DNA of 64,000 bases. Source: Desulfobulbaceae bacterium (GTDB lineage Bacteria > Desulfobacterota > Desulfobulbia > Desulfobulbales > Desulfocapsaceae). Both the position numbers and the translations under genes were made by a program. Shown one piece after another: positions 14,371 through 49,111 of the stretch (position 1 is the stretch's first letter; each line of letters starts with the position of its first letter). The stretch is taken from NCBI GenBank assembly GCA_003249645.1, contig QKIH01000035.1:6495-70494 (forward strand). Direction: 5' to 3'. Under the pieces are notes generated by a model that ran no database searches, had not been told where the DNA came from, and saw only the letters and a program-made list of their open reading frames with translations.

Positions 14371-14522
14371 CCCTCTATTTTTTTCTATCAGTCTCTTTCC
14401 TCATTCTGTTATTCTTTCTTTATGATCTTTTTCTAAAGATGGCTAATACAGTGTCGACAACAATAATGCAGAAAAAATGATAAGTGCTAATTAAGAGAAT
14501 TCACTAAGAAAAAAAGATATCT

Positions 14523-14620: not shown

Positions 14621-14797
14621 AGGGGATGTCGGATATGAGTTGCACATATTAATAGGTGTTGCGCTTGAAAACAACTTTTTATTATATTATATAAGCATTT
14701 TGCTTTTTCTAGACAGCAAAGTGCGACGTAATTAGCTGGCCAAGTAATTGAATGGCCGTAAATATATTACATTATTAAAAAGGCAGTAATAAAACGT

Positions 14798-27170: not shown

Positions 27171-27239
27171 CTTTGAGTGCAGTCCAACGTTGTCGTACAC
27201 TTACTGGGAAACCAAACCGAAGCATCGAGGAGAATCGCC

Positions 27240-27509: not shown

Positions 27510-27589
27510 CTTTATCTGTTTTCCATTATTCGAGGAGAACATGGTGGCTCTCCTGAACTGTCCCGTTCATTGCAACAGAACAGCTTGAA

Positions 27590-31428: not shown

Positions 31429-31448
31429 CCATACAACAGCAGGGATTT

Positions 31449-33617
31449 ATGGCTAAATTTGAATTGTTGCACACCAAGAGTGGACGGTTGTTTTTCATCG
31501 CCTTACTTTTTGCCCTCATGGCTGGTGCCGGGACCATACTGTATTTAAAATCCCTGGAACGCCGTATTGAAGAAAAATACACCCCCGCTAAAGAACAGAA
31601 GAGCAGGGTGGTTGTAGCAAGCAGCAATCTCAAAGCCGGTACGGTCCTGTCTCCAAACACGGTTTCTGTCCGTGAAATTCCAGCAACCTATGTCCCCAAA
31701 GAAGCAATCACTGCACAGCAGTTCAACACCATCAGCGGCGCCATTCTTACCGAAGATCTGGAACAGGGTAAAATGCTCACCATGGCCCATATCAACCTGA
31801 ATCTTCCTAAAGACCTGTCAGCCACGATCAAGGAAGGACACCGGGCAATCACTATCAGCTCGGACGAACTCCAGTCCATATCCGGTCTGCTCAGACCCGG
31901 CAACCGTATTGATATTTTCTCGAGGCTCAATTCATCTACCGCTCAAAATGCCAATATCGACTCACGCAACAGCGATGTCATTATCCCGGTTCTGGAAGAC
32001 GTGCTGATACTTGCAACCGGCAAAAAACCGGCTCGTCCCAACGAGGACGATTATCTCAATCTGAACGAAAATCAGCAGAAACATACCTACAATACCATTA
32101 CGCTGGAACTCTCTCCGGATAACGCAGCCCTGCTCAGTCTTGCCCGCTCGGAAGGGGAGCTTATTGCTGTTCTGCGCAACAAGGAGGACAACGGCGGCCT
32201 GCTGTTTGAAAAGATGACCCTGCAGGATCTTGCCGCCAACTCTGCAAAACTGGAAAATGAAGCACAGAAAAAGCTGGATAACCGTTTAGTCGATTCAGTT
32301 ACCAGAACAGCAGACGGCAAACTGGTCACCAAGGACGGGGTTGTCATCAACGACCCGAACGTTCACCTGAACAAAGACGGTCTGCTGGTTACAAAAGACG
32401 GAGTTGTCCTTTCCGGTCGCGGTCTGCACGTTGATTCTAACGGCCATATAGTGGACGAAAACGGCAAGCCGGTGGATACCGCCAGTCTGGTTGCAACAAA
32501 AGACGGCGGCATTGTCGATAAAAACGGCAACGTTCTCGACTCAAACGGCTATCATTCTGTAAAAGGAGGCTTTCTGGCTGACAAAAACGGGAATATCTAC
32601 ACCCCGGACGGACACCTGCTCAAAGGCGTCCATCTCGATAAGAACGGTAATGTCGTTACCAGCGACGGCAAACTACTCAAAGCCTCAGACCTCTCCATCT
32701 CTTCTGACGGAACAGTCAGTATAGCGCCAAAAGTTCCCGGAGTTCATGTCGGCCAAAACGGTGAACTGCTCAACGCTGACGGCAAGCCGGTTACTGCAGC
32801 GGACCTCGTTACCATCGACAAAGACGGCACAGTCAGAACCAAGGATGGCAGAATCCTCAAAGGGGTTCACATGGGGAAAGACGGTAAGCTCTATGATGCA
32901 AACGGCAATGAAGTAAAACCGGAAGATCTGGTTTCAGTCGGCCCAGATGGTTCTGTCACATATAAAAGTGCTGATGCATCTGGTGTTCATCTCGGAAACA
33001 ATGGAGACGTGCTCAATGCTGACGGAAAACCTGCATCGGCTACAGACCTGGTAACTGTCGGAGCCGATGGTCTTGTTCGTACAAAAGACGGGAAAGTGCT
33101 TGAAGGCGTCCATATGGGCAAGGACGGCAAGCTCTATGATGCAAACGGCAAAGAGATGAGTGCAAACGATGTCCTGCTGGCATCACAGGGTTACAAGGCA
33201 GGCAATAACGGCACAGTCGTCGGTCCGGACAGCAAAACTTATACCGCAAAAGATCTGGTAACTGTTGACCCGGATGGCACTGTCAGAACCAAGGACGGCA
33301 AGATACTCAAAGGTGTCTATCGCGACAAAAACGGCGTTTTACGAAACAGCGACGGAACACCGTTGACCGCCCAGGATGTCATTGCACAGAGCAGCGCCCA
33401 AAATATTGATAATGCTCAATCGGGCACGCTGCCGGGTGTAAGCGCCAGTTATTCTCCTGATCTGGCAACATCGATCAAGAACCAGGGAGAAATCAAGACC
33501 CAGCAGTTACGACAAATTGAGTTCATTATTGGCGGTTCCGGAAACGGTGCAGCCAAAACATTTACAGTGCCAGTTGAAGAAAAAAGCATGCAACCTCTTC
33601 CAGGAACCAAAGAATAA
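31449..33617 (+). CDS. cpaB: CpaB/RcpC-family pilus assembly protein with a long C-terminal repeat extension
   Basis: Residues 1-250 are a TM anchor, a SAF-like part (VVVASSNLKAGTVLSPNTVSVREIP) and an RcpC part (GHRAITISSDELQSISGLLRPGNRIDIF). Residues ~285-640 are repeats. Total length is 722 aa. Confidence 0.8.
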   Translation: MAKFELLHTKSGRLFFIALLFALMAGAGTILYLKSLERRIEEKYTPAKEQKSRVVVASSNLKAGTVLSPNTVSVREIPATYVPKEAITAQQFNTISGAILTEDLEQGKMLTMAHINLNLPKDLSATIKEGHRAITISSDELQSISGLLRPGNRIDIFSRLNSSTAQNANIDSRNSDVIIPVLEDVLILATGKKPARPNEDDYLNLNENQQKHTYNTITLELSPDNAALLSLARSEGELIAVLRNKEDNGGLLFEKMTLQDLAANSAKLENEAQKKLDNRLVDSVTRTADGKLVTKDGVVINDPNVHLNKDGLLVTKDGVVLSGRGLHVDSNGHIVDENGKPVDTASLVATKDGGIVDKNGNVLDSNGYHSVKGGFLADKNGNIYTPDGHLLKGVHLDKNGNVVTSDGKLLKASDLSISSDGTVSIAPKVPGVHVGQNGELLNADGKPVTAADLVTIDKDGTVRTKDGRILKGVHMGKDGKLYDANGNEVKPEDLVSVGPDGSVTYKSADASGVHLGNNGDVLNADGKPASATDLVTVGADGLVRTKDGKVLEGVHMGKDGKLYDANGKEMSANDVLLASQGYKAGNNGTVVGPDSKTYTAKDLVTVDPDGTVRTKDGKILKGVYRDKNGVLRNSDGTPLTAQDVIAQSSAQNIDNAQSGTLPGVSASYSPDLATSIKNQGEIKTQQLRQIEFIIGGSGNGAAKTFTVPVEEKSMQPLPGTKE
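32301..33368 (+). repeat. coding tandem repeats (short x-K-D-G-x-hydrophobic units nested in ~80-aa duplications)
   Basis: For example, GVHVGQNGELLNADGKPVTAADLVTIDKDGTVRTKDGRILKGVHMGKDGKLYDANGNE pairs with GVHLGNNGDVLNADGKPASATDLVTVGADGLVRTKDGKVLEGVHMGKDGKLYDANGKE, and a third partial copy follows. The DNA copies have diverged. Confidence 0.85.
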
Positions 33618-33620
33618 GAT

Positions 33621-35129
33621 ATGAAACAACAGTCACAGAGAATCTCCTGTACAGGTTTTCAATCACACCGCAGCCTGCTTATTACAATGCTTTTCCTGCT
33701 CACTTTTCTTTTGCTTGGAACGGGGCAGACGACACATGCCGCCGGCAGGCAAAACATTTCCATGTATCTTGGTGAAGTCAAAGTGATGGAGGTTGGCAAT
33801 GTAATCAGGGTGGCGCTTGGTAACCCAAAGGTAATATCCAATTCACTTCTTCACCCCGGTCAGCTGGTAATACTCGCCAATGCCGTGGGCATTACTTCCA
33901 TGCATCTCTGGCTCGAAGACGGCAGCGAAATGGAATTTGACGTACTGGTGAAGGAAAAGCAGTCCTTTGATTCCTATCTTGAAATCAAGCAGCTCCTTAC
34001 AACCATTCCAAGCGTCACTGTGAAAAAAGTCGGTGAACTGATCGTTCTGACCGGCACCATCAGGGCAGACCAGCAGGAGATATTCGAACGAATTGTCGGC
34101 CAGTTCAAAGGTGTTCTTAACCTCGTCACCCACGGTAACCCGTATCAGGAGATCAGTTCTTTGTTGACGGCAGTACCAAATCTTAAAGTAAGAACAGTTG
34201 GTTCCAATACTGTTCTATCCGGTGAAATCAGTGACGAATACTCAAAGATCATCAATCTGGTTACCGGAAAGTTCCCCAATGTCATCAACATGACCCGTGC
34301 CCAGGCTGCCATTGCCGGGAAAATGGTATACATGGAAGTCAAGATCATGGAAGTCAGCAAAAGTTTTTCTGAAAAACTCGGCATCAACTGGTCAAACCTC
34401 GGTATTGTCGGCCCTTCCCTTGAATTCGGCTGGCAGAGGACGAGAAACGGAGCATCCATCCTGAACGCTTCTGCAACCAGCTCTTCACTTAAAAAATCAG
34501 ACGGCATAGAGTATGGCGCCGGCTATATCGGCATTGCAACCGGCATCACCTCCACTATCAACCTGGCGGAAGATACCGGCGATGCAATATTATTAGCAGA
34601 ACCTCGACTGAGCGCACGATCAGGAGGCAAGGCAGAATTCCTTGCAGGAGGCGAATACCCCTTACCGGTTTCCAACGATGGCCAGGTAACCGTTGAATTT
34701 AAAAAATACGGTATCCAGCTGATGATCGAACCGGTTGTCGACGAACTCGGCAATATTCTTGCCCATGTAGATACTGAAGTTTCAACTATCGACGATTCCG
34801 TTGCAGTTCAGGACATTCCGGGCATAAAAAGCCGCAGCACCAAGACAGATATCAGTATGCGTGATAATCAGACCCTGGTTATTGCCGGACTGCTAAGCGA
34901 TGAGGCCGGCAAAAGCTTTGACAAGGTAAAAGGGCTCGGGGACATTCCCGTTCTAGGTGCACTTTTCCGTTCAAAAAGCTTTCAGAACAAACAGACTGAG
35001 CTGATCATATTCGTCACTCCGAGGGTCTATGACGCGACCAGTCCGATCAATATGGAAGCGATTGAAAAAGCCGCCAGAATCAGCCAGGACTACAACGAGC
35101 TTGTCAAAGGTGGGGGAATTCTTGATTAG
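33621..35129 (+). CDS. cpaC: Tad secretin CpaC/RcpA
   Basis: 502 aa. Signal peptide, a pilus-N-terminal domain (LGEVKVMEVGNVIRVALGNPKV), two BON-like repeats and a secretin domain (LAEPRLSARSGGKAEFLAGGEYP...GDIPVLGALFRS). Confidence 0.9.
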   Translation: MKQQSQRISCTGFQSHRSLLITMLFLLTFLLLGTGQTTHAAGRQNISMYLGEVKVMEVGNVIRVALGNPKVISNSLLHPGQLVILANAVGITSMHLWLEDGSEMEFDVLVKEKQSFDSYLEIKQLLTTIPSVTVKKVGELIVLTGTIRADQQEIFERIVGQFKGVLNLVTHGNPYQEISSLLTAVPNLKVRTVGSNTVLSGEISDEYSKIINLVTGKFPNVINMTRAQAAIAGKMVYMEVKIMEVSKSFSEKLGINWSNLGIVGPSLEFGWQRTRNGASILNASATSSSLKKSDGIEYGAGYIGIATGITSTINLAEDTGDAILLAEPRLSARSGGKAEFLAGGEYPLPVSNDGQVTVEFKKYGIQLMIEPVVDELGNILAHVDTEVSTIDDSVAVQDIPGIKSRSTKTDISMRDNQTLVIAGLLSDEAGKSFDKVKGLGDIPVLGALFRSKSFQNKQTELIIFVTPRVYDATSPINMEAIEKAARISQDYNELVKGGGILD

Positions 35130-35141
35130 AGGGTATGCATT

Positions 35142-36875
35142 ATGTTTGAAATCCTGCTGAAAGACAACAAAGGCAAGCTGCTCGAAACAAGCACCTGTGA
35201 AACCGGATCGTGCACGGTCGGCCGTTCGGGGCGTAATCTTATTAACCTGAAGGGTTGGCGTATTGCGGCCATTCATGCTGAATTTTCTCTTCAGTCAAAA
35301 GGTCTGTACGTCTTCGATCGATCTGGTGGTATCGGCATACTGGTTAATGGCACACCCGTTCCCTCATTCGGACCGCTTCATGCCAGTGATGAGATTCAGA
35401 TAGGGTCCTACCGCCTCACAGCCCATTATGACGAGCCAGTCCTTTCCTATTCTGAAACTGCTGTGAGCAGCCCCAAAGCGCCTGAACAGCCTGAAAAGGA
35501 CATCCCGGAAGAACACATCGAGCATTTTACTGCAAAACAGACCGGCAGAAATATCGGTGTACAGCATCTTGAACATGATGAACAGCACAGTCACCAGCAC
35601 AGCAGCAAACGCTTTCTGTGGCATAACCGTATTCACCAGAAACTCATGCTGGCCATGGATCTTCGCCGCACAGACGTTGAATCCATGGACGATAACAAGC
35701 TCAAGGAAACAGTCGAATCACTGATCAAGGAAATCATCGAATCGGTAAAAAATGATCTGCCTTCTGATGTGGACTGTGAACGGCTGGCCAAAGAGGTGTT
35801 GAACGAGGCAATCGGGCTCGGCCCACTTGAAGATCTGCTGGCAGACGGCAGCATCACTGAAATAATGGTCAACCGCTTCGATGATGTCTACATTGAAAGA
35901 CGTGGGAAACTGCAGAAAAGTGAAGTGACCTTCTCAAGCGACGATGCCGTACGTTCAGTTATTGAGAGAATCGTTTCCCCGCTTGGCCGCAGAATTGACG
36001 AAAGCTCTCCCATGGTCGATGGACGCCTGAAAGACGGCTCCAGGGTCAACGCCATCATTCCTCCTCTGGCAATAAAGGGCCCGACCCTTACTATCCGAAA
36101 ATTCTCCAAACAGAAACTGCAGATGCAGGATCTGATCGATTTCGGTGCAATTTCCGCTGCCATGGCCTCTTTTCTCGAAACAGCCGTCACCAATAGAAAA
36201 AATATCGTCATCTCCGGCGGTACAGGCAGCGGCAAGACAACCTTTCTCAACGTGCTGAGTAATTACATTCCTCACACCGAACGCATTATCACGGTTGAAG
36301 ACTCAGCAGAACTGAGACTCGGTCAGCCCCATGTTGTCTCCCTTGAAGCACGGCCTGCCAACATGGAAGGAGTAGGAGGCATAACCATTCGTGATCTTGT
36401 TAAAAACTGTCTGCGCATGCGGCCGGATCGGATCGTGGTCGGCGAGTGCCGAGGCGGAGAGGCCCTTGATATGTTGCAGGCAATGAATACCGGGCATGAC
36501 GGATCCCTTACCACCGTTCATGCCAACACCCCCCGTGATCTTATATCCCGTCTTGAGGTCATGGTTATGATGGCAGGAATGGACCTGCCGGATCGCGCAA
36601 TCCGCGAGCAGGTAACCTCTGCAGTACACCTTGTCGTTCAGCAGGCCCGATTTGCCGACGGTACCAGAAAAATCACCCATATTACCGAGATTACCGGTAT
36701 GGAAAGCGGCATGGTGCAGATGCAGGATATTTTTATCTATAAGCAGCGCGGGTTTGACAGTGAAGGAAGGGTGCTCGGCGACTTTAAGGCAACCGGCCGG
36801 GTTCCCGAGTTTTATGAAAACCTGCAGGAAAGAGGAATTCCTGCGGACATGTCTTTATTTGCGGTGAACGAATGA
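35142..36875 (+). CDS. cpaF: FHA-domain-fused Tad secretion ATPase CpaF/TadA
   Basis: 577 aa. N-terminal FHA pattern (CTVGRSGRNLINL...IHAEF...LYVFDRSGGIGILVNGTPV...IQIGSYRL). C-terminal T2SSE ATPase with Walker A GGTGSGKTT, Asp box and His box. Confidence 0.92.
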   Translation: MFEILLKDNKGKLLETSTCETGSCTVGRSGRNLINLKGWRIAAIHAEFSLQSKGLYVFDRSGGIGILVNGTPVPSFGPLHASDEIQIGSYRLTAHYDEPVLSYSETAVSSPKAPEQPEKDIPEEHIEHFTAKQTGRNIGVQHLEHDEQHSHQHSSKRFLWHNRIHQKLMLAMDLRRTDVESMDDNKLKETVESLIKEIIESVKNDLPSDVDCERLAKEVLNEAIGLGPLEDLLADGSITEIMVNRFDDVYIERRGKLQKSEVTFSSDDAVRSVIERIVSPLGRRIDESSPMVDGRLKDGSRVNAIIPPLAIKGPTLTIRKFSKQKLQMQDLIDFGAISAAMASFLETAVTNRKNIVISGGTGSGKTTFLNVLSNYIPHTERIITVEDSAELRLGQPHVVSLEARPANMEGVGGITIRDLVKNCLRMRPDRIVVGECRGGEALDMLQAMNTGHDGSLTTVHANTPRDLISRLEVMVMMAGMDLPDRAIREQVTSAVHLVVQQARFADGTRKITHITEITGMESGMVQMQDIFIYKQRGFDSEGRVLGDFKATGRVPEFYENLQERGIPADMSLFAVNE

Positions 36876-37723
36876 TACTAACCCTGTTCGTGACAGTATG
36901 CGCATCGATTGCAACCGGCGTTTTTGCCTGGCTTTTCTTCGAGCATTTCTCGCACAGGATTCTAGAAGCGAAAGACTCCATCTCTTCCACCACCGCACTG
37001 AAGTTTTCCGAGATGTTTCTCTTTGTCGACGTCACCCGCTACTTCAGGATTTATATAGCCCTCATTATCGGCCTGCCTGTTCTTGTCACCCTGCTCTCAG
37101 AAGATTTCCTGCTTGGCATCATCACTCTTCTGGCGCTCTTTGCAGTACCGCCGATGATGATCAACTCGATGACGAAGCGCCGCCTGAAAAAAATCGAGCA
37201 GCAGCTCCCCGATGCCCTGATGATGATATCAGGTTCACTGAAAGCCGGGGCAAGTCTTTCAAGCGCTATCGACAACCTGATACGGGAGAGCCCGGCACCG
37301 ATCAGTCAGGAGTTCGGTCTCATGCTGCGTGAGAGAAAGCTTGGCGTCGATCTCGACACCGCTCTTTCTCATCTTGAGCAGCGAATCCCGCTTGAAGATT
37401 TTTCACTGAGCATCTCCGCCATCAGAATCTCGCGGGAAGTAGGTGGAAACCTTGCAGAAACATTGGAATCTCTTGCGGAAACAATACGCAAAAAACTGAC
37501 GATGGAAGGAAAAATAGAGAGCCTCACCGCCCAAGGAAAATTACAGGGGATCGTCATGAGTTCGCTGCCTGTTCTGCTCGTAGGTGTTCTGATGAAGGTT
37601 GAACCTGCTGCCATGGGTATGCTGTTTACGACCAAACTCGGCTGGGCCGTACTACTGCTGATCATTGCCATGCAGCTTCTCGGCTTCCTGGCAATTAGAA
37701 AAATCACCACCATAGACGTCTGA
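36872..37723 (+). CDS. tadB: Tad inner-membrane platform protein TadB
   Basis: 283 aa with a T2SSF-like domain (LPDALMMISGSLKAGASLSSAI...). Overlaps cpaF by 4 nt. Confidence 0.85.
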   Translation: MILTLFVTVCASIATGVFAWLFFEHFSHRILEAKDSISSTTALKFSEMFLFVDVTRYFRIYIALIIGLPVLVTLLSEDFLLGIITLLALFAVPPMMINSMTKRRLKKIEQQLPDALMMISGSLKAGASLSSAIDNLIRESPAPISQEFGLMLRERKLGVDLDTALSHLEQRIPLEDFSLSISAIRISREVGGNLAETLESLAETIRKKLTMEGKIESLTAQGKLQGIVMSSLPVLLVGVLMKVEPAAMGMLFTTKLGWAVLLLIIAMQLLGFLAIRKITTIDV

Positions 37724-37726
37724 AAT

Positions 37727-38611
37727 ATGGATACAAGCTATCAGCTCATACTTGCATCGTTCTCAATCATATCAGCGCTTGCCCTGTTCTACTGTCTGGC
37801 ATCGCTTTATGACGATGTGCCGGAAGATGACAGAGAGTTCATGGATCCGCTGCCCAAAGTGCTGAAACTCGTCTGGCCGCTGGTCCGGTTGATAGCCTAC
37901 CACCTGGTCAGCCCCATCGCTCCATACGACTACGTCAAACACGTGGAGGAAAGACTTCAGAAAACCGGTGTCAGCTATCTGATGATGGCAGAGGAGTTTA
38001 TCGCCCTTCGTATCTTTACTGCTCTCTTCACTCTCCTTTTCGGCTCGCTGATACTCATTACTTTCAACGAATGGAATAATCTTCTGATTCTTATCCTGCC
38101 GGTGATCGGTTATCTCTATCCGCATATATGGGTCAGGGATATCCGCAAGAGACTTGAAGACGGCATATTGAGAACGCTGCCCGCTTATCTCGATTTCATT
38201 TCCATGGCAGTGGAAGCGGGCCTCAACTTCTCAGGAGCCATCGAACAGGCAAGACGCAAGGGCCCTAAAGGACCGCTTGTCAATGAATTCGGCATAGTTC
38301 TGCGTGATCTGCGGTCCGGTATAAACCGCGAAAATGCGCTGAAGCGTATGGCGGAACGCCTGGATATCCATGAACTGACAAGCTTTGTCAATGCCGTGGT
38401 CCAGGCAGAAAAAATGGGATCCGGCCTGGGCACCATTTTAAAGATACAGGCGGAACAGAGAAGAAACGAACGGTTTCAACGAGCTGAAAAAAAGGCCATG
38501 GAGGCACCTGTAAAACTGGTTGGCCCGCTTATCCTGTTTATTTTCCCGACCACTTTTATCGTGCTGGCCTTTCCGATTGTGATGAAATTTCTCCATGGTG
38601 GTCTTTTTTGA
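37727..38611 (+). CDS. tadC: Tad inner-membrane platform protein TadC
   Basis: 294 aa with a T2SSF-like domain (LPAYLDFISMAVEAGLNFSGAIEQ...). Confidence 0.85.
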   Translation: MDTSYQLILASFSIISALALFYCLASLYDDVPEDDREFMDPLPKVLKLVWPLVRLIAYHLVSPIAPYDYVKHVEERLQKTGVSYLMMAEEFIALRIFTALFTLLFGSLILITFNEWNNLLILILPVIGYLYPHIWVRDIRKRLEDGILRTLPAYLDFISMAVEAGLNFSGAIEQARRKGPKGPLVNEFGIVLRDLRSGINRENALKRMAERLDIHELTSFVNAVVQAEKMGSGLGTILKIQAEQRRNERFQRAEKKAMEAPVKLVGPLILFIFPTTFIVLAFPIVMKFLHGGLF

Positions 38612-38964
38612 GATACGGTACTCTTTGCAACGATACAGACAGGAAGGTCATCATACCGAAGGTGTCGATTACTGAAAACTGGATTGAACGGGCAAGAGGG
38701 CTGCTCGGTCGTGCTCAGCTGGAAGAGGGAGAAGCAATGCTGATATCTCCCTGCAATTCAATTCACACGTTTTTTATGCCTTACGCTATCGATGTGGTAT
38801 ATCTTGATAAAAAGATGCATATTCTCAAGATCTGCTCCGACCTTTCACCATGGAGCCTCAGCGGCTGCCGCACTGCCTTCATGGTGCTTGAGCTGCCTGC
38901 ACGGGCAGCATCAAAAAATAATCTTCAAACAGGAATGCGTTTATCATGGCAGGAAGATATATAA
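38608..38964 (+). CDS. DUF192-family protein
   Basis: 118 aa. RARGLLGR...MLISPCNSIHTFFMPYAIDVVYLDK is the DUF192 (COG1430) pattern. Confidence 0.75.
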   Translation: MRYGTLCNDTDRKVIIPKVSITENWIERARGLLGRAQLEEGEAMLISPCNSIHTFFMPYAIDVVYLDKKMHILKICSDLSPWSLSGCRTAFMVLELPARAASKNNLQTGMRLSWQEDI

Positions 38965-39428
38965 TCCGGGCTCTATTACTGCTCTTTCTTGCAGTTGTTT
39001 CATTGTCAGGCTGCGCCGCAACAAAGCCCGGCAAAACGGTCTTTGACTACGAGCAGGAAGCCAGCGAGGCCTATGCTGGCGGCAGGTATGATGTGGCTGT
39101 TAACCGTTATGAATACCTTGTTGAGCAGGTACCGAAAGACCCGAATTTCTGGTTCAGGCTGGCAAACTCCTATGCCAAAAACGGTGAACCGGAAAAAGCC
39201 GTTGTGGCCTATCAGAATACCCTGCTCCGCGACAGCACCTATGAAAAAGCATGGTATAATCTCGGTATCATCCAAATGCAGCAGGCACTGAAGACGTTTA
39301 TCGACATGCAGAAAGCCATGCCGCCGAACAGCCCAGTCCATTCGCTTGCTGAAGAGAAAATGAACGGTCTTTTTCTCCTGCTCGGCCAGAATCCAGATGA
39401 AGAACATCCTGCAGCCGACACCAAATAG
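38946..39428 (+). CDS. TPR-repeat lipoprotein (TadD-like)
   Basis: 160 aa. Lipobox LSGCAA and TPR repeats (FWFRLANSYAKNGEPEKAVVAYQNTLLRDSTYEKAWYNLG). Confidence 0.6.
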   Translation: MAGRYIIRALLLLFLAVVSLSGCAATKPGKTVFDYEQEASEAYAGGRYDVAVNRYEYLVEQVPKDPNFWFRLANSYAKNGEPEKAVVAYQNTLLRDSTYEKAWYNLGIIQMQQALKTFIDMQKAMPPNSPVHSLAEEKMNGLFLLLGQNPDEEHPAADTK

Positions 39429-40089
39429 ATTCCATCAGCTTTTCCAGGCATCCGGCCAGAGCATGGTCGAACTGCTGGCTATTTTAAGCGCAATGCTGCT
39501 GCTTATTTTCGGCACCATCCAGTTTGCTCTGATCTGGCATGCTAAGATCACCCTGAACTACGCCGTCTTTGAAGCCGTAAGAGCAGGAACCCTGAACAAT
39601 GCAACCTATGATGCTGTCAAGGAAGGCTTTGCGAGAGGACTCGCCCCGTTATACAGCTTTGACGAAAACGATGAAGATCAGGTAGGCGCCTTTCAGGTGG
39701 CTCGTTCAAAGATTTTGGAAGAGTTCGATTCAAGCGAACAGTTGATTCGTATTGAACGGTTGAACCCGACCGAGAACAGTTTTGCGGATTTTGCAGACGG
39801 GGCCGGCTATATCCCCAATGATAATCTCCGTTTTCGCTCATCAACCATCAGCCATCGATCCGGCAGCTCAATCCAGGATGCCAACCTGCTGCACCTCAGA
39901 GTCACGTACTGGTATCCGCTCTATGTTCCTCTGGTCAATAAGTTCATGTTCAACACGGTAATCTGTAGCGGAAAATGGAAAAAGGACAAGGTGTGCAGTC
40001 AGGATATTCCGCGCATTCCGCTGACATCGACAACTGTTTTACGCATGCAGACACCCGCTCTCAACACTCAGGGATTTTACCAACCGTAA
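39397..40089 (+). CDS. TadE-like pseudopilin
   Basis: 230 aa. ASGQSMVELLAILSAMLLLIFGTIQFALIWHAKITLNYAVFEAVRAG is a TadE N-terminal domain. Confidence 0.7.
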   Translation: MKNILQPTPNRFHQLFQASGQSMVELLAILSAMLLLIFGTIQFALIWHAKITLNYAVFEAVRAGTLNNATYDAVKEGFARGLAPLYSFDENDEDQVGAFQVARSKILEEFDSSEQLIRIERLNPTENSFADFADGAGYIPNDNLRFRSSTISHRSGSSIQDANLLHLRVTYWYPLYVPLVNKFMFNTVICSGKWKKDKVCSQDIPRIPLTSTTVLRMQTPALNTQGFYQP

Positions 40090-41054: not shown

Positions 41055-43313
41055 ATGGTAGGGCAAGCTACTTTATGCTATAAAGGGAAATGGAATTGTA
41101 ATACAGAGCAGTACACAGAAACGAATATCAAGCCCGGCGTTCACATCATGACCAAAGCAACCGATACGACCACGGAGCATTCAATCTCTGATAGCTCCTT
41201 GCAACCAAATCCTGCCACCCTAAAAAGTTCTTCGCAGCCATTTCCCCAGCAGAACATACTTAACAGGGAAATAGAAGAACGAAAACGGGCAGAACAGATC
41301 ACCCAGACTCTGTTTAAGATTTCCAGTGCAGTCAGCTCCAGCAAAAATCTGCAGGAGCTGTATCGTTCTATTCACCTTATTCTTGGTGATATCATAGACC
41401 TCACCAACTTTTACATTGCTCTCTATTCGAAAGAAACAGGACGGGTATGCTTTCCCTATTTCGTTGATCAATATGACAGCGGTCAAGTTTATTCAGATCA
41501 GATCAACCGGGAAAACTCCTTAACCGGCAGTGTTATCAAAAAAGCCGCCCCTGTATTTTTTGATGAGCAGGAACTGCGCCAAAGGACTGAAAAAAATCTC
41601 ATTGTCGGAACCACTCCGCTTGTGTGGATCGGCATCCCTTTGAAAAGGGGAGATGAAGTTATCGGAATAATCGCAACCCAGAGCTACGACAACCCGAACC
41701 TTTTTGACCAGATGGATCTTGACACTCTGGTTTCCGTCTCGGATCAGATTGCTCTGGCAATTGAGCGAAAACACTATGAACAGGCATTAATTTCCAGCGA
41801 GAAAAAATACCGCAATATTCTCGAAAGCATTGATGACGGTTATTTCGAAATAGATACTGATCTTTGTTTCTCCCTGGTTAACAGGGCGATATGTGAGATA
41901 CTTGGCGAAAAGGCAGAGAACCTGCTTGGCACACCCTGCTCAAAATTCATCTCTCCATATATCTACAGCAAAATAGAGCAGATGGTAAAAGACCTTGTCC
42001 AGAACGGTGAATCCGGCAAGATTATTGAAATTGAGTTCACTCCTAAAAAAGGGGAAAAACGCTTCCTCGAGGCAGCCTTTTCTCTCAGGCATAATGAATC
42101 TAATCAAGTCATAGGAATACGTGGCATCGGCAGGGATATAACGCAGAAAAAGCAGGCCGAAAAGAACAGAAAATTGCTTGAGGATCAACTTCAACAGGCC
42201 CAGAGACTCGAATCACTTGGCACTCTTGCCGGAGGAATAGCTCATGATTTCAACAATCTGCTCATGGGAATCCAGGGAAGAATTGACCTGATGCGAAATG
42301 ATCTGGCCAAGGACCATCCGCACAGCAAGCAATTAGAAAACATAGAAAACTGTGTTGAGCGGGCAGCCAATCTCACTTCCCGGCTTCTCGGCTTTGCCCG
42401 GGGCGGAAAATATGAACTGCAGCCGACCGATGTCAACAGACTCATAGAAGAGAGCATCACTATTTTCGGTCGAGCGAAAAAAGAGATTACCATCACAACC
42501 CACTTCGATCAAAAAGGCTGCATCATAGATGCTGCATCCAATCAGATTGAGCAGGTCTTTCTCAACCTTCTGGTCAATTCATCCCAGGCAATGTCTGGAA
42601 ACGGCACTATTTCGATCAACACATGCCGTATCATCATCAACGAACAGCAAGCTGAATTTCACACAATTGTTCCCGGCAGCTACATCCGGATAACATTGAC
42701 CGATAACGGTAAAGGCATTGCTAAAGAACACCTGCCAAAAATATTTGACCCGTTTTTCACAACTAAATCCCTTGGCGGCGGAACCGGGCTCGGACTTTCG
42801 ATGGTTTACGGTATAATCAAGAATCATCTGGGAGCAATTACGGTAGAAAGCCAAGTCAATCAAGGGACATGTTTTACTATATATCTGCCTGAATCCTCAC
42901 ATGAACTTCCCCAGGAAGTCAAAATTATTAAAAAAACCGAAAAAGGCAGCGAGCTCATTCTTCTTGTTGACGACGAAGAAATGATCACCGCGGTCGGCAA
43001 GGAAATGCTTGTTGTACTGGGCTACAAGGTAATAACAGCTTCATCCGGATACGATGCTGTTGAAATAGTAAAAAATCATCAGGACGAGATTGATCTGGTG
43101 ATCATTGACATGATTATGCCGAAAATGAGTGGCGGAGAACTGTTTGATCAGCTGATGCAGATTAATCCCGAACTCAAAACAGTCTTGTCAAGCGGCTACA
43201 GTGTTGAAGGAGATGCCCAGAAGATTCTCGACCGGGGCTGTTGCGGATTTATCCAAAAACCATTCAATCTCTCAAAACTCTCAGAAAAAATACGCGAAAT
43301 ACTGCAGGAATAG
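41055..43313 (+). CDS. hybrid sensor histidine kinase (GAF-PAS-HisKA-HATPase-REC)
   Basis: 752 aa. GAF-like and PAS-like regions, H-box GGIAHDFNNLL, G-boxes DNGKGI and GGGTGLGLSMV, and a C-terminal receiver (LLVDDEE...IIDMIMPKMSG). The start may be ATG 41148. Confidence 0.9.
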   Translation: MVGQATLCYKGKWNCNTEQYTETNIKPGVHIMTKATDTTTEHSISDSSLQPNPATLKSSSQPFPQQNILNREIEERKRAEQITQTLFKISSAVSSSKNLQELYRSIHLILGDIIDLTNFYIALYSKETGRVCFPYFVDQYDSGQVYSDQINRENSLTGSVIKKAAPVFFDEQELRQRTEKNLIVGTTPLVWIGIPLKRGDEVIGIIATQSYDNPNLFDQMDLDTLVSVSDQIALAIERKHYEQALISSEKKYRNILESIDDGYFEIDTDLCFSLVNRAICEILGEKAENLLGTPCSKFISPYIYSKIEQMVKDLVQNGESGKIIEIEFTPKKGEKRFLEAAFSLRHNESNQVIGIRGIGRDITQKKQAEKNRKLLEDQLQQAQRLESLGTLAGGIAHDFNNLLMGIQGRIDLMRNDLAKDHPHSKQLENIENCVERAANLTSRLLGFARGGKYELQPTDVNRLIEESITIFGRAKKEITITTHFDQKGCIIDAASNQIEQVFLNLLVNSSQAMSGNGTISINTCRIIINEQQAEFHTIVPGSYIRITLTDNGKGIAKEHLPKIFDPFFTTKSLGGGTGLGLSMVYGIIKNHLGAITVESQVNQGTCFTIYLPESSHELPQEVKIIKKTEKGSELILLVDDEEMITAVGKEMLVVLGYKVITASSGYDAVEIVKNHQDEIDLVIIDMIMPKMSGGELFDQLMQINPELKTVLSSGYSVEGDAQKILDRGCCGFIQKPFNLSKLSEKIREILQE

Positions 43314-43393: not shown

Positions 43394-44284
43394 CTATTTC
43401 GCAGTGACAATCTCAACCATTGTCTCGTAGATACTCATCGGAGTCGTTCCGTGTGCTTCGGCAATTTCTTTAAGCTTCTGGGAGGGTTCCGCATTTATTC
43501 CTTTGGCAGCCAGCCCCTGCATAATCATCTCAAGTGATAAGCCATAATCATTACAGATTGATTCAATGCTCATTTTACCAAGACCGGATTTCGGGCCGTT
43601 CACGAACTCTTCAATATTTGCGCTGACTGATTGAGCACCTGCCTTCTCCTTGGCAACATCATCTCGGATAGTTGTTGCACCCTTTTCCTGTGATGGTTTA
43701 ATGATATCATATATTCTTTGCGGCGGGACCCCTGCGCGGGCAGCAATAACCTTCAGAGTCTCATTTTCACTCTTTACTTCAATTCCCGCTGCTTTCAGGA
43801 GTTCCATACATTTCGCAAGATCAAGACTGTCTCTCTTGGCGAACATTTTTAGCGAAGACAATTCAGCATGTCCATACGGAGGCTCACCGTATTTTTCACC
43901 TGCTGCTTCTTTAAAATGCTCTGAAAGGCTCATGATCTGTGCCATAGGTGGAACGTTGAAATAGGTTCCGACTGTCACGGCAAGGGTTATAACTAGAGCC
44001 ACAATATTGGTACCGGAAAAAAATCTGAACTCTTTAGCCTTGTTTTTCATATAGTTTATAATCGGCGTCCAGTTATAAAAGATATGCACCAGACCGGCCA
44101 GCAGGAAGAGAAACCCGACAGTGATATGCTGAGCACCCCAGTCAGTTTTCGACAGACCGAGAAAACTCCAGTCAGCCCAGTAAGCCACCCTTCCTTCCGG
44201 GACAACATAGAGAACAACGGAGTTCACTGTTAGAATAATGATACTCCAGACCAGAGTCATTGATGTAATTTTTCTCAAATTCAT
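43394..44284 (-). CDS. DUF4405-like membrane protein with soluble C-terminal repeat domain
   Basis: 296 aa. N-terminal ~125 aa has 3-4 TM helices with conserved His (HITVGFLFLLAGLVHIFYNW). The C-terminal part holds two similar helical modules. Confidence 0.55.
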   Translation of the reverse strand: MNLRKITSMTLVWSIIILTVNSVVLYVVPEGRVAYWADWSFLGLSKTDWGAQHITVGFLFLLAGLVHIFYNWTPIINYMKNKAKEFRFFSGTNIVALVITLAVTVGTYFNVPPMAQIMSLSEHFKEAAGEKYGEPPYGHAELSSLKMFAKRDSLDLAKCMELLKAAGIEVKSENETLKVIAARAGVPPQRIYDIIKPSQEKGATTIRDDVAKEKAGAQSVSANIEEFVNGPKSGLGKMSIESICNDYGLSLEMIMQGLAAKGINAEPSQKLKEIAEAHGTTPMSIYETMVEIVTAK

Positions 44285-44451: not shown

Positions 44452-44501
44452 GAAATAAAAAAGAGCCCTGCAGTATTCGTTTTCGAAAAATACAGGGCTC
44501 T
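44452..44501 (-). terminator. rho-independent terminator of the hydrogenase-MCP unit
   Basis: On the minus strand, AGAGCCCTG...CAGGGCTCT forms a long hairpin followed by TTTTTTATTTCC, 34 nt after the MCP stop. Confidence 0.7.
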
Positions 44502-44534
44502 ATCTTCCACCTGCCATAAAGCAGGATTCAAATG

Positions 44535-46223
44535 CTATTTGAGCTTGAACTGCGCAATTAAATGCTTCAGCTGCTCAGAAAGTTCAGCCAGTTCGGCAGC
44601 ACTCCTGTCGACCTGGTAACTGGAGTTTTTGATGCTCTCAGAGGCAGAATCAACTTCAACAATATCCTTGCTGATACCATGACTGACTTCGGAGCTTGCC
44701 TGAACATTATCGGCAACCCTGTCAATACCGTTGGAAGCCATACTGATATTGCCGGCAATTTCTCTGGTTGCCACAGACTGCTCTTCTACCGCAGCAGCAA
44801 TAGTTGTGACTATTGCATTAATATCATTAATAATTTCACTTATCGAAGCAATCTCTGCAATAGCACCTGAGGTATCGGTCTGAATTTCGGAAATCCGTTG
44901 ACTGATTTCCCCGGTTGCTGCTGCGGTCTGTTTAGCCAGTTCTTTGATCTCATTGGCAACAACAGCAAACCCCTTACCTGCCTCCCCTGCTCTTGCCGCC
45001 TCGATGGTGGCATTCAATGCAAGCAGGTTGGTCTGATCAGAGATCTCATTAATGGTCTCGGTAACCTTGCCGATATTCTGCGCCGATACGCCGAGATTCT
45101 TCATCTTCTGTGATGCATTCAGGGCATCATCAACAGCTTTCTCAGAAATCTTACGGGCATTTTCAGTATTATTTGCAATCTCATCAATTGTTGACGTCAT
45201 CTCTTCCGTCGCTGCGGCAACCATATTGATATTGCTGTTGGCCTCCGCCATTGATTCCGATACCGAGGCCATATTGGAACTCATTTCATGGGCCAGGGAT
45301 GCAACCTCAGTGGACTTCTTCGACATATCCTCCGAATCGTTCAACATACCCACGGAAAGACCGTTGAGTTTTTCCGAAGAAGATTTCAGACTGTCTACCT
45401 GTTTGGAAATCGTGAACATCATTTCATGCAGGGTGGCGATAAAGCCGTTGAAATTGCCAGACAGCAAGCCGATTTCATCTTTTGACCGCACTTCCATCTC
45501 CGTGGTCAGATCTCCGGATGCAACCTGATCAAAGCCTTTGCTTATTCGCCAAATCGGCACCGCAATAATCTGTCTTGATAGAAAGAAAATTGCCAAAGTG
45601 AGTACAACAAGAACGGCAACAACGGCTATTGCCGCGTCAGTAAGGTAGGTAATATTGAGATTATGCATCGACTCTGTTGTTTGTTTCTTCGCCTTAAGAA
45701 AGCTATCGATGGAAAACTTGAAATACATCACACCGCCATGGGGCTCACCCAGTTTCCAGTCAAGATGACAACGGAGACAATCGGCAACTATTTTCTGCGG
45801 ATGATATATCTGGATGGCCTGGTCATCCATCTGAAAAATAAGCTCTTCTCCCTTGTTGATTCGGTCATTGATATCAGCAGGAAGAGTCTTGTTGAGAAAT
45901 GCTTTATCGGATGCATAATCAACCTTACCGTTTTTAGAAAACAGAGAGAATTCAAGCAGTCCTTCAACATTATTTGTGTCTTTAAGCAAATTGCCAAATT
46001 TCTCCATTTCTCCCCGGGTCAGTGAATCGGCAACTGAACTTGCAATCGAGTGATAGAGGTTTCTGGCAAATGTTTCTTCCCGGGCCTGCAGCCGACCAAG
46101 ATTGTCCTTTGTCAGCTTGCCTATTTCCCGGTTCACCTGCACATATTGAAAAAGTTGTGACAGAATAATTACAACACTCAGGCAGACAATAAGTGTGAGA
46201 ATCAGTTTTGTATGCAGTTTCAT
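44535..46223 (-). CDS. methyl-accepting chemotaxis protein with periplasmic CxxCH (heme c) sensor domain
   Basis: 562 aa. TM1 (residues 5-25), a ~175-aa periplasmic domain containing C149-LR-C152-H153, TM2 (~195-216), a HAMP domain and an MCP signalling domain ([31 protein letters not shown]). Confidence 0.92.
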
Positions 46224-46244: not shown

Positions 46245-47156
46245 CTATGCTTTTTTCTCGCCCTTGCGATAAAACGGAAGAGCTGGATCTTTTGCAAAAA
46301 ATTCCGATGAACAGCCGATACACGGCCCACCCGACTTAATACAGTTGTTTATGCCGCCATTACGATAACGGGTTGTACAATCCGAATAAGTTACAACGCC
46401 AAGGCAGCCCAATTCGAAGAGACAACCGGGATCACCAAATTTTTTCGCAAAAGTGGAGCGTTCATAATCATAAAAACGGGGACAATTATGATGTATTGTT
46501 TTACCGAAGAACATCAGAGGCCGATCGCGGTCATCAAGCGGTGGTAAACCGTATTTAACAAGATGGACGAGTGTACCGACAAACCAGTCCGGGTGAGGAG
46601 GACAGCCTGGAATCACAATTGATGGAGTGTTGACCCCTTTATTCTTGAGATATCGCGGCGAACTGACTGCACCTGTAGGGTTGTTGTCGGAACCGGGAAT
46701 GCCGCCAAATGCCGCACAGGCACCAAGATGAATAACATGTGTAGCGGACTGCGCAGCCTTGACCACCAGATCTCCTACCGGCTCATGACCAATTACACAG
46801 GCCTCAGGCATTCCTTCAGGGATGCTGCCTTCCACCACAAGTATATGCCCGCCCTCTTCAGAGGTCTTATGGATGATTTCCATACAGCCCTCACCTTGCG
46901 TAGTTGAAAGGGTATGGTGGAAAAGCAGAGAAATATACCGGGTAAACAGTTCCCCGGCACCCGGTGCTTCCGAATCAATAAATGATATTGTACACCCTGA
47001 ACATGACTGCGCCTGCAGCCAGAGGACTTTTACCTGCCCTGTCGCCAATGATTCCATTGCATCCGCAATATCAGGAATTGCACTGCTGGCAAGCCCCATT
47101 GCAACTGCCATTTTCGACCCAAGTTCAAGAAATTCACGACGTGTAAACTTTGTCAT
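46245..47156 (-). CDS. [NiFe] hydrogenase small subunit, Tat-signal-bearing
   Basis: 303 aa. Twin-arginine leader MTKFTRREFLELGSKMAVAMGLASSA. Proximal-cluster motifs SCSGC, GACAAFGG and GCPPHP. Distal/medial motifs HHNC...GC...GC and C-x11-C-x6-C-x2-C. Confidence 0.93.
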   Translation of the reverse strand: MTKFTRREFLELGSKMAVAMGLASSAIPDIADAMESLATGQVKVLWLQAQSCSGCTISFIDSEAPGAGELFTRYISLLFHHTLSTTQGEGCMEIIHKTSEEGGHILVVEGSIPEGMPEACVIGHEPVGDLVVKAAQSATHVIHLGACAAFGGIPGSDNNPTGAVSSPRYLKNKGVNTPSIVIPGCPPHPDWFVGTLVHLVKYGLPPLDDRDRPLMFFGKTIHHNCPRFYDYERSTFAKKFGDPGCLFELGCLGVVTYSDCTTRYRNGGINNCIKSGGPCIGCSSEFFAKDPALPFYRKGEKKA

Positions 47157-47168: not shown

Positions 47169-48671
47169 TTAATGAACCGCACAAGCTAAACATGGGTCAA
47201 ACGCACGTACAATACGAGCCGCCTCTATCGGATTATCCTTATCCTGAACATAGGTTCCAATAAGAGCCTGCTCCACCGGTCCTGAGACCTCCTTGTCATC
47301 TTTGGGTGAACAGTTCCAAGTTGTCGGAACGATACAGTCGTAATTACTGACCTTCGAGTTTTCGATGCTGATCCAGTGTCCAAGCGCCCCTCTCGGTGCC
47401 TCTGTCAGCCCGGCCCCTTTTCCTGAGGCAGGAATTGTAAAATCGGCACAGGCAGGCTGCCCCGGCTCTAGTTTTTCAATCCATTCCTCCATTCTGTCGA
47501 GCAGAAGCTGCAGTTCGATAATTCTGATAGCATGGCGGCCAAGACATGAATCAAGCTCCTCAACAGTGCGCCCGATCTGGCGCAGGAACTGATCTGTATA
47601 CTGCTTGAGCAAAGAGTCCCCTGGCCTTGCATAAGCGACCATCACCCTGGACAAAGGACCGACTTCCATAGGCTCACCGTTGTATCTCGGGGCCTTAATC
47701 CAGGAATATGCCCCAGATTTATTCGGTTCAGGATTGGTTTTTCCTCTGCCGGAATCGCTTGAATATTTCGAATATTTCACCTGTTCGGTGATACTGGCGG
47801 TGTCTACCTCGGAGAATGTGCCGTTGATCAACACTCCCGGTTCAAACACCTTGTTCGTATTACCTTTTGCTTGAGCAAATGAACCGTAGCTGAGATAATT
47901 GCCGCAGCTCTTCCCGAGTTGCCAATACTCAGGAAATTCGTTTGCCACCGCAAGGACATCATGTATGTATTCCGTCTCAAGAAACTCGCGAAGCTGCCTC
48001 GTCTTAGTCCTGCAAAGAGCGATTTTCTTTGTTGTCACCTGCTCAGTTACACCACCGGGGACATTTGAGGCCATATGGGGCATCTTGCCTGAGAAAATTG
48101 CAACAAGCTGGTGTGCCAGCGCACGTATATCCATTGCAACAAAATAGTTTTTCAACGCTGAGATATTTACCTCAGCGTTCTGAATATATCGCGTTTCATA
48201 ACGCGGCAGAAAAGGTGCCGCAGGGAATAATTTTTTAGAACGCATTTCCTGCTGAACCCACGACTTGATGTCAAGCAGCATTCTGTCTTTGCCCTGATAT
48301 GCCAGGATACCCTTAACATCGATAAAATCCATGGCAGACAGATGATAGAAATGTGTCACGTTATTGTGAAAATAATTGGCTCCCAGCATGATGTTTCTGA
48401 TCAGGCGTCCATTGTCGGGAATTTCAAGACCGTATGCATCCTCCTGCGCCAAAGATGACGCCTGCCCCTGGGAAACCGGACAGACACCGCAGATGCGCTG
48501 CATTATCTGCTGAGCATCCAAGGGAGAACGTCCTCTCATTATTTGTTCAAAACCCCTGAACATTTCACCGACACATTTCGCATCGCTGATGTAATTGCCT
48601 TCAACTTCAAGATTTATGGCCAGATGCCCTTCAATCCGCGTAAAGGGATCAATACTCACTTTTTGCGCCAT
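47169..48671 (-). CDS. [NiFe] hydrogenase large subunit (short form, no C-terminal extension)
   Basis: 500 aa. Has RIEGH and RICGVCPVSQ near the N-terminus. The C-terminus is DPCLACAVH followed directly by the stop. Both Cys are TGT codons. Confidence 0.95.
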   Translation of the reverse strand: MAQKVSIDPFTRIEGHLAINLEVEGNYISDAKCVGEMFRGFEQIMRGRSPLDAQQIMQRICGVCPVSQGQASSLAQEDAYGLEIPDNGRLIRNIMLGANYFHNNVTHFYHLSAMDFIDVKGILAYQGKDRMLLDIKSWVQQEMRSKKLFPAAPFLPRYETRYIQNAEVNISALKNYFVAMDIRALAHQLVAIFSGKMPHMASNVPGGVTEQVTTKKIALCRTKTRQLREFLETEYIHDVLAVANEFPEYWQLGKSCGNYLSYGSFAQAKGNTNKVFEPGVLINGTFSEVDTASITEQVKYSKYSSDSGRGKTNPEPNKSGAYSWIKAPRYNGEPMEVGPLSRVMVAYARPGDSLLKQYTDQFLRQIGRTVEELDSCLGRHAIRIIELQLLLDRMEEWIEKLEPGQPACADFTIPASGKGAGLTEAPRGALGHWISIENSKVSNYDCIVPTTWNCSPKDDKEVSGPVEQALIGTYVQDKDNPIEAARIVRAFDPCLACAVH

Positions 48672-49111
48672 TCCTGCTACTCCTTCTACTCAAATCAACT
48701 AGTTACATAAAACACTACCTTTCAAGGTAACTCCCCGATGCAGCGTACATTCCTGATGGAATACTAATGAAAAACTAGTTGTATGTTAATAATTCTCAAA
48801 AGTCAACTCGGGCCAGAAAAATATTTCTCAGTTTTTTTGATAAAAATATTTTTTAATTTCACCGTGTTATCGTTAACACATTAGTTGTTTCAAGATGTTA
48901 AAAACGGTAAGATATGAGCTGTCTGCAACCTGCTGACTTGTATTTACAGAATTATATTTTGTACACTGGTAGTGATACTTACTCAGGAGAAGGCCCTCTT
49001 GACTTCTCATCAAGGACTTCGGCCAATTTCAGTTTACAGAGATCAGGCATCAGTGCTATATACCCTGGCAAAGTGAGCTGTTTCAGATACACCAAGAGAG
49101 AAAAACGCATT

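Follow-up and report, generated by a model that had tools for sequence, protein, structure and literature searches.

A [NiFe] hydrogenase encoded with a predicted heme-c Cache chemoreceptor: a candidate periplasmic H2 sensor

In a 64,000-nucleotide stretch of DNA from a Desulfobulbaceae bacterium (contig QKIH01000035.1, positions 6,495 to 70,494; referred to here in its full length as the window) we found a three-gene operon that encodes a [NiFe] hydrogenase's large subunit, its small subunit, and a methyl-accepting chemotaxis protein (MCP) with a candidate heme attachment site in its periplasmic domain. We consider it probable that this operon specifies a periplasmic H2-sensing device in which the hydrogenase reduces the heme of the receptor and in this way drives chemotaxis. 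A more specific reading, to which we give about even chances, is that the enzyme represents an unclassified and widespread kind of periplasmic [NiFe] H2 sensor that derives from group 1, has lost its large subunit's C-terminal extension, and passes its electrons directly to the heme of a dedicated Cache chemoreceptor, with a variant that signals through a two-component system.

Conservation of the hydrogenase with a chemoreceptor

Related loci were collected from one genome per species, which yielded 57 loci. When the open reading frames (ORFs) of these loci were clustered, conservation was confined to three neighbors, the two hydrogenase subunits and the transducer; the genes that flank the cassette vary from genome to genome. 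In every locus with the inverted gene order (large subunit, then small subunit) and enough sequence, the next gene aligns to the chemoreceptor of the window from residue 1. A hidden Markov model (HMM) of the sensor domain detected one gene per cassette (two in locus L018), always downstream of the small subunit, and detected nothing in the ordinary loci. The large subunits without a C-terminal extension amount to 47 copies; 43 of these have the sensor downstream, two are cut by a contig end, and two have no sensor (these are additional, head-to-head copies, in loci where sensors are present anyway). None of the 12 copies of extension-bearing large subunits has the sensor downstream. Thus, the sensor accompanies 43/43 extension-less copies with room downstream versus 0/12 extension-bearing relatives.

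Carriers of the cassette, as judged by record names, belong to at least seven phyla or candidate phyla (Desulfobacterota, Verrucomicrobiota, Hydrogenedentes, Riflebacteria, Pseudomonadota in the form of Magnetococcales, Planctomycetota, and Omnitrophota) and include the cultured Desulfotalea psychrophila LSv54. In D. psychrophila the genes are found on CR522870.1, with the large subunit at 176848-178347, the small subunit at 178357-179259, and the chemoreceptor, whose CxxCH is C164/C167/H168, at 179216-180946. The nearest relatives of the window cassette are found in Desulfobulbaceae, Desulfopila, Desulfocapsa, and Desulfotalea. The transducer is a chemoreceptor in all cassettes but one. In the exception, locus L025 from an uncultured bacterium (8001-14689), the heme Cache domain is fused to a HisKA-HATPase-2xREC-Hpt kinase (11876-14689), and a response-regulator gene (10555-11871) lies between the small subunit and this hybrid kinase. 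Moreover, in eight loci the gene immediately upstream of the large subunit encodes CheW.

A reading of the window made from its sequence alone (the sequence-only reading) had proposed that the hydrogenase is an H2 sensor, on the basis of hallmarks of its large subunit. The idea of a sensor survives, because conservation of the operon strictly extends to a heme-c Cache chemoreceptor; both hallmarks are indeed present and the operon context backs a sensor role, but the assignment to the HoxC/HupV type (group 2b) does not hold, as set out below.

In the window itself the gap between the large- and small-subunit genes is 12 bases (GGAGGTAGTGTT), with a GGAGG before the small-subunit ATG, and the gap between the small-subunit and chemoreceptor genes is 21 bases. 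These short gaps, together with the strong terminator that follows the chemoreceptor gene, argue that the three genes form a closed operon (Table 1). The presumed promoter region contains one weak sigma-70-like match, at 48789-48761.

Several cassettes depart from this plan. In two verrucomicrobial loci, L018 (5068-13777) and L020 (5015-12167), the cassette faces another extension-less hydrogenase pair in head-to-head orientation; L018 thus carries two hydrogenase pairs, along with two tandem sensor chemoreceptors, and the copies in L020 look frameshifted, possibly as a result of long-read assembly errors. In cassettes of the Desulfobacula type (L028-L030, L033, L034, and L053) the small subunit is followed by an extra chemoreceptor that lacks the heme domain, and only then by the heme chemoreceptor. 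Two of them, L029 and L030, have ORFs immediately upstream of the large-subunit gene that match the receiver part of the hybrid kinase at 41055-43313 in the window.

Table 1. Features of the hydrogenase-chemoreceptor operon and of its surroundings in the window
Feature	Position	Strand	Basis or remark
[NiFe] hydrogenase large subunit, 500 residues, without C-terminal extension, first gene of the operon	47169..48671	-	PF00374, NF033181
L1 motif R59-I-C61-G-V63-C64-P-V-S-Q68, with two Ni-binding Cys and gas-channel Val63	48468..48497	-	
C-terminal motif D492-P-C494-L-A-C497-A-V-H500, TAA immediately after	47169..47198	-	
Hydrogenase small subunit, 303 residues, without membrane anchor	46245..47156	-	PF01058, PF14720; alignment with HoxK, HoxB, HupU
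Predicted twin-arginine (Tat) signal peptide of small subunit, MTKFTRREFLELGSKMAVAMGLASSAIPDIADA	47058..47156	-	RRxF[LIM] motif
Methyl-accepting chemotaxis protein, 562 residues	44535..46223	-	PF00672, PF00015
Periplasmic sensor domain, residues 26-196, predicted single-Cache fold	45636..46148	-	AlphaFold2 and Foldseek
Candidate c-type heme attachment site C149-L-R-C152-H153	45765..45779	-	CxxCH motif
Intrinsic terminator, operon end	44456..44506	-	Hairpin of -24.2 kcal/mol, z-score -7.1, then U-run
Divergent intergenic region 5' of large subunit, presumed promoter	48672..48913	.	ORF map
DUF4405 membrane protein, 296 residues, long soluble C-terminal part	43394-44284	-	250 bases downstream of the chemoreceptor
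Hybrid sensor kinase, GAF-PAS-HisKA-HATPase-receiver	41055-43313	+	Convergent with the cassette region

The hydrogenase and its place among [NiFe] enzymes

The large subunit matches the Pfam family PF00374 (E = 3e-147) and scores 628 bits against NCBIfam NF033181, above the cutoff of 600; against the [NiFeSe] model NF045518 it scores 507, below the cutoff of 780. Both nickel-binding motifs of [NiFe] large subunits are present (RICGVC at 59-64 and DPCLACAVH at 492-500), and the usual catalytic residues Glu14 and Arg427 are kept. Among solved structures, the D. vulgaris [NiFeSe] hydrogenases, which are periplasmic, come closest (E = 1e-118); their L1 motif reads RICGVCPTAH. Note that C494 of the window protein is encoded by TGT (in GACCCATGT) and is therefore Cys, not a UGA-encoded selenocysteine.

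The first hallmark is that the protein stops at the His of its C-terminal motif. Consistent with what the sequence-only reading had described, the protein ends in ...FDPCLACAVH, with the His codon CAT at 47174-47172 and the stop codon TAA at 47171-47169. The extension is 0 residues long in 120/120 of the closest database homologues, all of which end at the same His, as do 47/47 extension-less copies in the related loci. The stop codon must be regarded as real because the 12-base gap contains a ribosome-binding site and leads to the small-subunit ATG, and because homologues end at the same His; the suspicion that it is a sequencing error is thereby refuted. The conserved end point, the adjoining ribosome-binding site and gene, and the intact metal ligands likewise rule out, for practical purposes, an error of assembly or a prematurely terminated pseudogene. 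Absence of the extension is known from groups 2b, 2d, 4c, 4e, and 4g, a list that includes no group 1 enzyme (PMC7294309). Among our more distant representatives there are further extension-less large subunits, of 460-495 residues and with the L1 motif RxCGVCHExH (P0278, P0280, P0299, P0329, and P0332).

The second hallmark is that the L1 motif closes with Gln68 (codon CAG at 48468-48470), where His is usual. That this residue is real follows from its presence in an 87%-identical protein from another sample (P0002). Gln was found in 8/120 of the closest homologues and His in the other 112, including relatives at 77-81% identity; Gln is thus not required for the function of the clade, whatever that function is. 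We also tallied this position in 110 diverse representatives with an L1 motif, taken from a 50%-identity library in which the clade is merged with its extension-bearing relatives. Of these, 103 have His, six have Gln, and one has Arg, and all six proteins with Gln are of the group 2 type, with RICG[IM]C and ends of the form C(T/A/S)VH. The proposal that Gln is a signature of sensors is therefore only partly borne out: in this diverse set it is confined to group-2-like proteins, but within the clade of the window protein it is sporadic. The L1 Gln of sensors, moreover, "seems not to be involved in H2 sensing" (PMC5665086). (A third argument for a sensor, the length of 500 residues, fails because the PDB contains mature [NiFeSe] large subunits of 484-498 residues, so that size is not diagnostic.)

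The small subunit carries the features of an exported enzyme. Near its N-terminus, residues 5-10 read TRREFL and residues 31-33 form a cleavage-type A-D-A site. Almost without exception the small subunits of the cassettes retain the RRxF[LIM] motif (the one in L002 has RRQLL); in an alignment, neither HoxB nor HupU showed a twin-arginine signal. The ligands of HoxK are matched by thirteen Cys and H222, and the ligands of three [4Fe-4S] clusters are all present: proximal (C52, C55, C147, and C185), medial (C260, C272, C279, and C282, the fourth Cys being present), and distal (H222, C225, C245, and C251). The protein ends about 20 residues past the last cluster ligand, with no C-terminal tail of about 50 residues of the HoxB/HupU type and no membrane anchor of the HoxK type.

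In a neighbor-joining tree (based on distances only and without bootstrap support) the large subunit falls within a monophyletic clade that is nested among [NiFeSe]-like, extension-bearing group 1 enzymes and lies far from HoxC and HupV. The loss of the extension, the loss of an adjacent HoxM-type protease gene, and the inverted gene order all map to this one clade. The extension is 0 in every locus with the large-then-small order and 13-22 residues in every relative with the small-then-large order (one mis-joined ORF aside). A HoxM/HybD-type endopeptidase gene is found just downstream of the large subunit in nine ordinary, extension-bearing loci; the search for such a partner that the sequence-only reading had called for came up empty at our locus, as no HoxM/HybD homologue occurs in the window or in 43/44 cassette loci. 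(In L023 a weak match to a HycI-type protease gene lies upstream on the opposite strand.) Gln68 appears at no fewer than six separate places on the tree, all inside a Desulfobulbales-like subclade, and this repeated change to Gln of a His that is almost invariant elsewhere would fit a relaxed or shifted constraint on the environment of the active site. Sensor-like remodelling of the active site was also sought across the clade, and only E36 and F246 proved to be clade-specific.

The hallmarks invite the interpretation that the enzyme is a regulatory hydrogenase of group 2b (HoxBC/HupUV type) that controls the transcription of hydrogenase genes. In both HoxC of Cupriavidus necator (RVCGICSVSQ...CMVCTVH) and HupV of Rhizobium (RICGICSVSQ...CMVCTVH), whose sequences come from annotated plasmids, Gln, as the sequence-only reading had stated, in L1 goes together with the absence of an extension, just as in the window protein (PMC5665086; PMC7294309). 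We nevertheless give this interpretation a very slim chance. Besides the distance on the tree and the 112/120 closest relatives without Gln, the gas-channel positions carry the wide-channel residues Val63 and Leu111, as in HoxG, rather than the Ile62 and Phe110 of HoxC, and the large subunit has RIEGH where HoxC and HupV have R[VI]EGD. The small subunit has a Tat signal and is missing the HoxB-type tail. Furthermore, the gene downstream encodes an MCP, and no genes of the HoxJ/HoxA type (a PAS kinase and an NtrC-type regulator) are adjacent to the window hydrogenase, whereas the reference group 2b loci (L058 and L059) do show the kinase arrangement. Judged from its sequence, then, the large subunit is not a HoxC/HupV-type sensor, and because its lineage is nested in group 1 the traits that the clade has in common with group 2b are convergent.

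The same tree brings up what we regard as the main rival of an H2-sensing device, namely that the enzyme is an ordinary respiratory, periplasmic uptake hydrogenase, [NiFeSe]-like and of group 1a, that delivers its electrons to a soluble pool of cytochrome c, while the receptor monitors the general redox state (energy taxis) or is unrelated. The nesting of the clade among group 1a-like enzymes, with [NiFeSe] hydrogenases as the closest structures, is what this rival would lead one to expect, and so are the Tat signal, the full chain of Fe-S clusters, the standard gas-channel and catalytic residues, and the near absence of clade-specific substitutions. What makes it unlikely in our view is the company that the enzyme keeps. 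No gene for a cytochrome c3, a cytochrome b, or a membrane anchor is conserved alongside, and the transducer is the sole conserved partner; the association with the heme sensor is 43/43, against 0/12 in the extension-bearing relatives; and in L025 the output has been swapped to a histidine kinase with the hydrogenase still in place. In addition, the L1 His, which has been replaced by Gln repeatedly in this clade, has been described as conserved in all non-sensor [NiFe] hydrogenases (PMC5665086).

The receptor heme and a proposed mechanism

The chemoreceptor has two transmembrane segments (TM1 and TM2, residues 7-25 and 197-215), a HAMP domain (219-267), and an MCP signalling domain (358-513). 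The sensor domain between the two segments was modelled with AlphaFold2 from 38 orthologues (mean predicted local distance difference test score, or pLDDT, 90.5), and the model has a sheet of five strands, with a long helix pair on its N-terminal side and a helix on its C-terminal side. When compared with the PDB by Foldseek, the model matched the WalK ectodomain (1e-5), the heme-c domain of GSU0935 (1e-4), Tll0287 (5b82; 4e-3), and GSU0582 (5e-3), as well as KinD, DctB, and Tlp3; the hits are extracytoplasmic sensors of single-Cache, double-Cache, and PAS-like type. Searching the PDB with the sequence of the sensor domain gave nothing meaningful, so that the similarity is at the level of the fold only. 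Against the Tll0287-like family PF11845 the window protein scored 12.2 bits, below the threshold of 24.1, and sub-threshold matches were found in 18/38 members (best E-value 0.0018). (Because the isolated domain used as a query returned only eight fragments, homologues were collected with the full-length chemoreceptor.)

The CxxCH motif is present at the same alignment position in 42/44 cassette sensors and in the full-length orthologues P0141-P0212 except P0175; it is present in none of the unrelated dCache chemoreceptors that the same homologue search returned. The invariant residues of the sensor domain are Gly71, Met73, Gly88, Leu94, Cys149, Cys152, His153, and Gly164 in the numbering of the window chemoreceptor (in the numbering of our alignment A1, the two Cys, the His, and the Met are C126, C129, H130, and M50). 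Of these, Met73 (46005-46007) is a candidate for the sixth ligand of the heme. The sensors of Magnetococcales (L023, 10706-12847; L054, 10483-12609) have two CxxCH motifs and a longer periplasmic domain.

The two Geobacter chemoreceptors among the fold matches, GSU0582 and GSU0935, suggest how such a domain may work. Their heme is high-spin when oxidized and bound by Met60 when reduced, with midpoint potentials of -156 and -251 mV, and this switch is the presumed signal (PMC8396549). Potentials of this kind could be reached by a hydrogenase that works near the H2/H+ potential. The same two proteins also bind nitric oxide (NO) and CO, which displace the axial Met (PMC8396549), and thereby lend some credit to a different account of the operon, in which the heme senses NO, O2, or CO, the hydrogenase serves as an accessory reductase to maintain the heme in a ferrous, ligand-ready state, and the availability of H2 gates the signal. 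The NO-sensor properties of heme-Cache signalling fusions (PMC12889525), and the sub-threshold PF11845 matches together with the fold match to 5b82, speak for this account as well. We think it quite unlikely. As an accessory reductase, a Ni-Fe enzyme would be costly, given that it depends on the entire Hyp machinery, and the PF11845 threshold was not reached. We know of no precedent for a dedicated reductase operon that serves heme sensors of this kind. Note also that a gas sensor kept ferrous in this manner overlaps with an H2-sensing device, as both require the transfer of electrons from the hydrogenase to the heme.

What the sequences show is the anatomy, the motifs, the operon, the synteny, and the phylogeny; for the H2-sensing device that we favor, the functional route we infer is as follows. 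The NiFe(CN)2CO center would be inserted by the general Hyp machinery without proteolysis, as in extension-less sensor hydrogenases; the large subunit would then join the small subunit, whose signal peptide would direct the pair into the Tat export pathway. Once in the periplasm, the pair would oxidize H2, and the electrons would pass through the three [4Fe-4S] clusters to the distal one, predicted to be surface-exposed and ligated by His, and from there to a c-type heme bound covalently in the Cache domain of the chemoreceptor. Reduction of the heme would change its coordination, probably through the binding of Met73, in the manner of Met60 in the heme-c chemoreceptors of Geobacter, and this change could be relayed through TM2 and the HAMP domain to the CheA/CheW array so as to bias swimming along gradients of H2 or of redox potential. 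In the lineage of L025 the output driven by this sensor domain would instead be a hybrid histidine kinase. The window has no evident hyp gene; family scans of other cassette loci picked up a HypF gene in L008 (1050-3431) and an ORF with a CobW/HypB-type GTPase domain in L010 (2040-3890), and ORFs of the corresponding clusters are seen in 12 cassette loci for the first and in 9 for the second.

Several points weigh against this mechanism. The planctomycetal cassette L037 encodes a chemoreceptor (2381-4327) that belongs to the family (HMM E-value 7.5e-15) and has no CxxCH; it is the only complete exception. No che genes lie next to the operon in the window. Heme-Cache domains fused to signalling modules have been reported to show the properties of NO sensors (Deshpande et al., bioRxiv 2026, PMC12889525). 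The contact and the electron exchange between hydrogenase and chemoreceptor are things that we infer, and a reducible heme would need an oxidant for its reset. Only two positions (E36 and F246) set the clade apart from its extension-bearing relatives, which argues that the catalytic subunit is essentially an ordinary group 1 enzyme. Finally, with its Val/Leu channel, Glu14, Arg427, and few substitutions, the enzyme could turn over fast and could also feed a respiratory cytochrome pool encoded elsewhere.

Two neighbors of the operon were entertained as partners and rejected. The DUF4405 protein was considered as a cytochrome b partner, but its gene lies past the strong terminator and is conserved in no other locus, and it is probably unrelated to the cassette. 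The GAF-PAS hybrid kinase was considered as an analogue of HoxJ, but it is encoded on the opposite strand and is likewise not conserved in other loci. Farther away, the window contains a run of ORFs (2137-6547) that resembles a pilMNOPQ-type type IV pilus cluster and a set of membrane- and secretion-like ORFs (27177-40089) that resembles a Tad/Flp pilus locus, both on the basis of ORF order and N-termini only.

Significance and comparison with known systems

H2 is a central currency of anoxic ecosystems. Directed movement toward H2 has been demonstrated for a methanogen (PMC3817446), and we found no bacterial H2 chemoreceptor in the searchable literature. If the device works as we propose, it would be the first molecular receptor for bacterial H2 taxis and the first H2 sensor to work outside the cytoplasm, and it would add a periplasmic, chemotaxis-linked class to the classification of hydrogenases. 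Its occurrence as a self-contained module in a cultured psychrophilic sulfate reducer, as well as in many uncultured lineages, would make H2 taxis directly testable. The enzyme would also provide a natural case of a Tat-exported [NiFe] hydrogenase that matures without an extension, which bears on the debated role of the extension in proof-reading (PMC7294309), and a natural series of His and Gln variants in the second sphere of an active site. Moreover, metagenome surveys that count such genes as respiratory group 1 uptake hydrogenases may overestimate the capacity for H2 oxidation.

The three-gene module is apparently undescribed: our searches of the full-text literature found no description of it, although an earlier mention may exist. 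HydDB recognizes a chemotactic class only among the [FeFe] hydrogenases (group C2, putative) and has no MCP-linked [NiFe] class (PMC5037454). The preprint on heme-c Cache domains describes a large family and nowhere mentions hydrogenases (PMC12889525), and a neighborhood survey from 2025 lists an MCP cluster among the genes near [NiFe] hydrogenases without discussing it.

Among known systems, HoxBC-HoxJ of C. necator and HupUV-HupT (group 2b) are alike in using a [NiFe] hydrogenase as the input device of a transducer, in having no extension and no dedicated protease, in the four-Cys medial cluster and, as far as the window protein is concerned, in the Gln of L1. Unlike the window enzyme, with its Tat signal and Val/Leu channel, they are cytoplasmic, lack a Tat signal, and have a narrow Ile/Phe channel; they dock through the C-terminal tail of the small subunit to a soluble PAS histidine kinase and control transcription, whereas the partner in our module is a membrane chemoreceptor (rarely a kinase) with a predicted periplasmic heme-c Cache domain. 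The [NiFeSe] and [NiFe] enzymes of group 1a (such as HysAB of D. vulgaris Hildenborough; 5jsu, 2wpn) are closest in sequence and share the size, the Tat-type small subunit, the three [4Fe-4S] clusters, and the catalytic residues. They differ in their small-then-large gene order, the extension of 13-20 residues, the adjacent HoxM/HybD-type protease gene in the relatives examined, the L1 His, the selenocysteine of true [NiFeSe] enzymes, and the absence of a linked transducer.

On the side of the receptor, GSU0582, GSU0935, and DcrA of D. vulgaris are likewise chemoreceptors with two transmembrane segments and a periplasmic PAS/Cache-like domain that holds one covalent c-type heme with a Met switch (the heme being a prediction for the window protein). 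They have no detectable sequence similarity to it, and they are thought to sense ambient redox conditions or gases rather than the output of a dedicated enzyme. To our knowledge, none of the three has been described as encoded with a hydrogenase. The sCache_heme domains (DUF3365/Tll0287, PF11845) share the Cache fold with an inserted CxxCH, occur in fusions to MCPs and histidine kinases, and are enriched in Desulfobacterota and related phyla (PMC12889525); the window domain differs from them in falling below the Pfam threshold, and for sCache_heme it is NO sensing that has been proposed (PMC12889525). The [FeFe] hydrogenases of group C2, termed "chemotactic (putative)" in HydDB (PMC5037454), resemble our module in that they may sense H2 and act through MCPs, but they belong to an unrelated superfamily, are cytoplasmic, and have a putative function. 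A hydrogenase that feeds a signal transducer is therefore a known concept, exemplified by HoxBC-HoxJ; what is new in the module proposed here is the periplasmic site, the origin from group 1, the heme-c Cache partner, and the output to chemotaxis.

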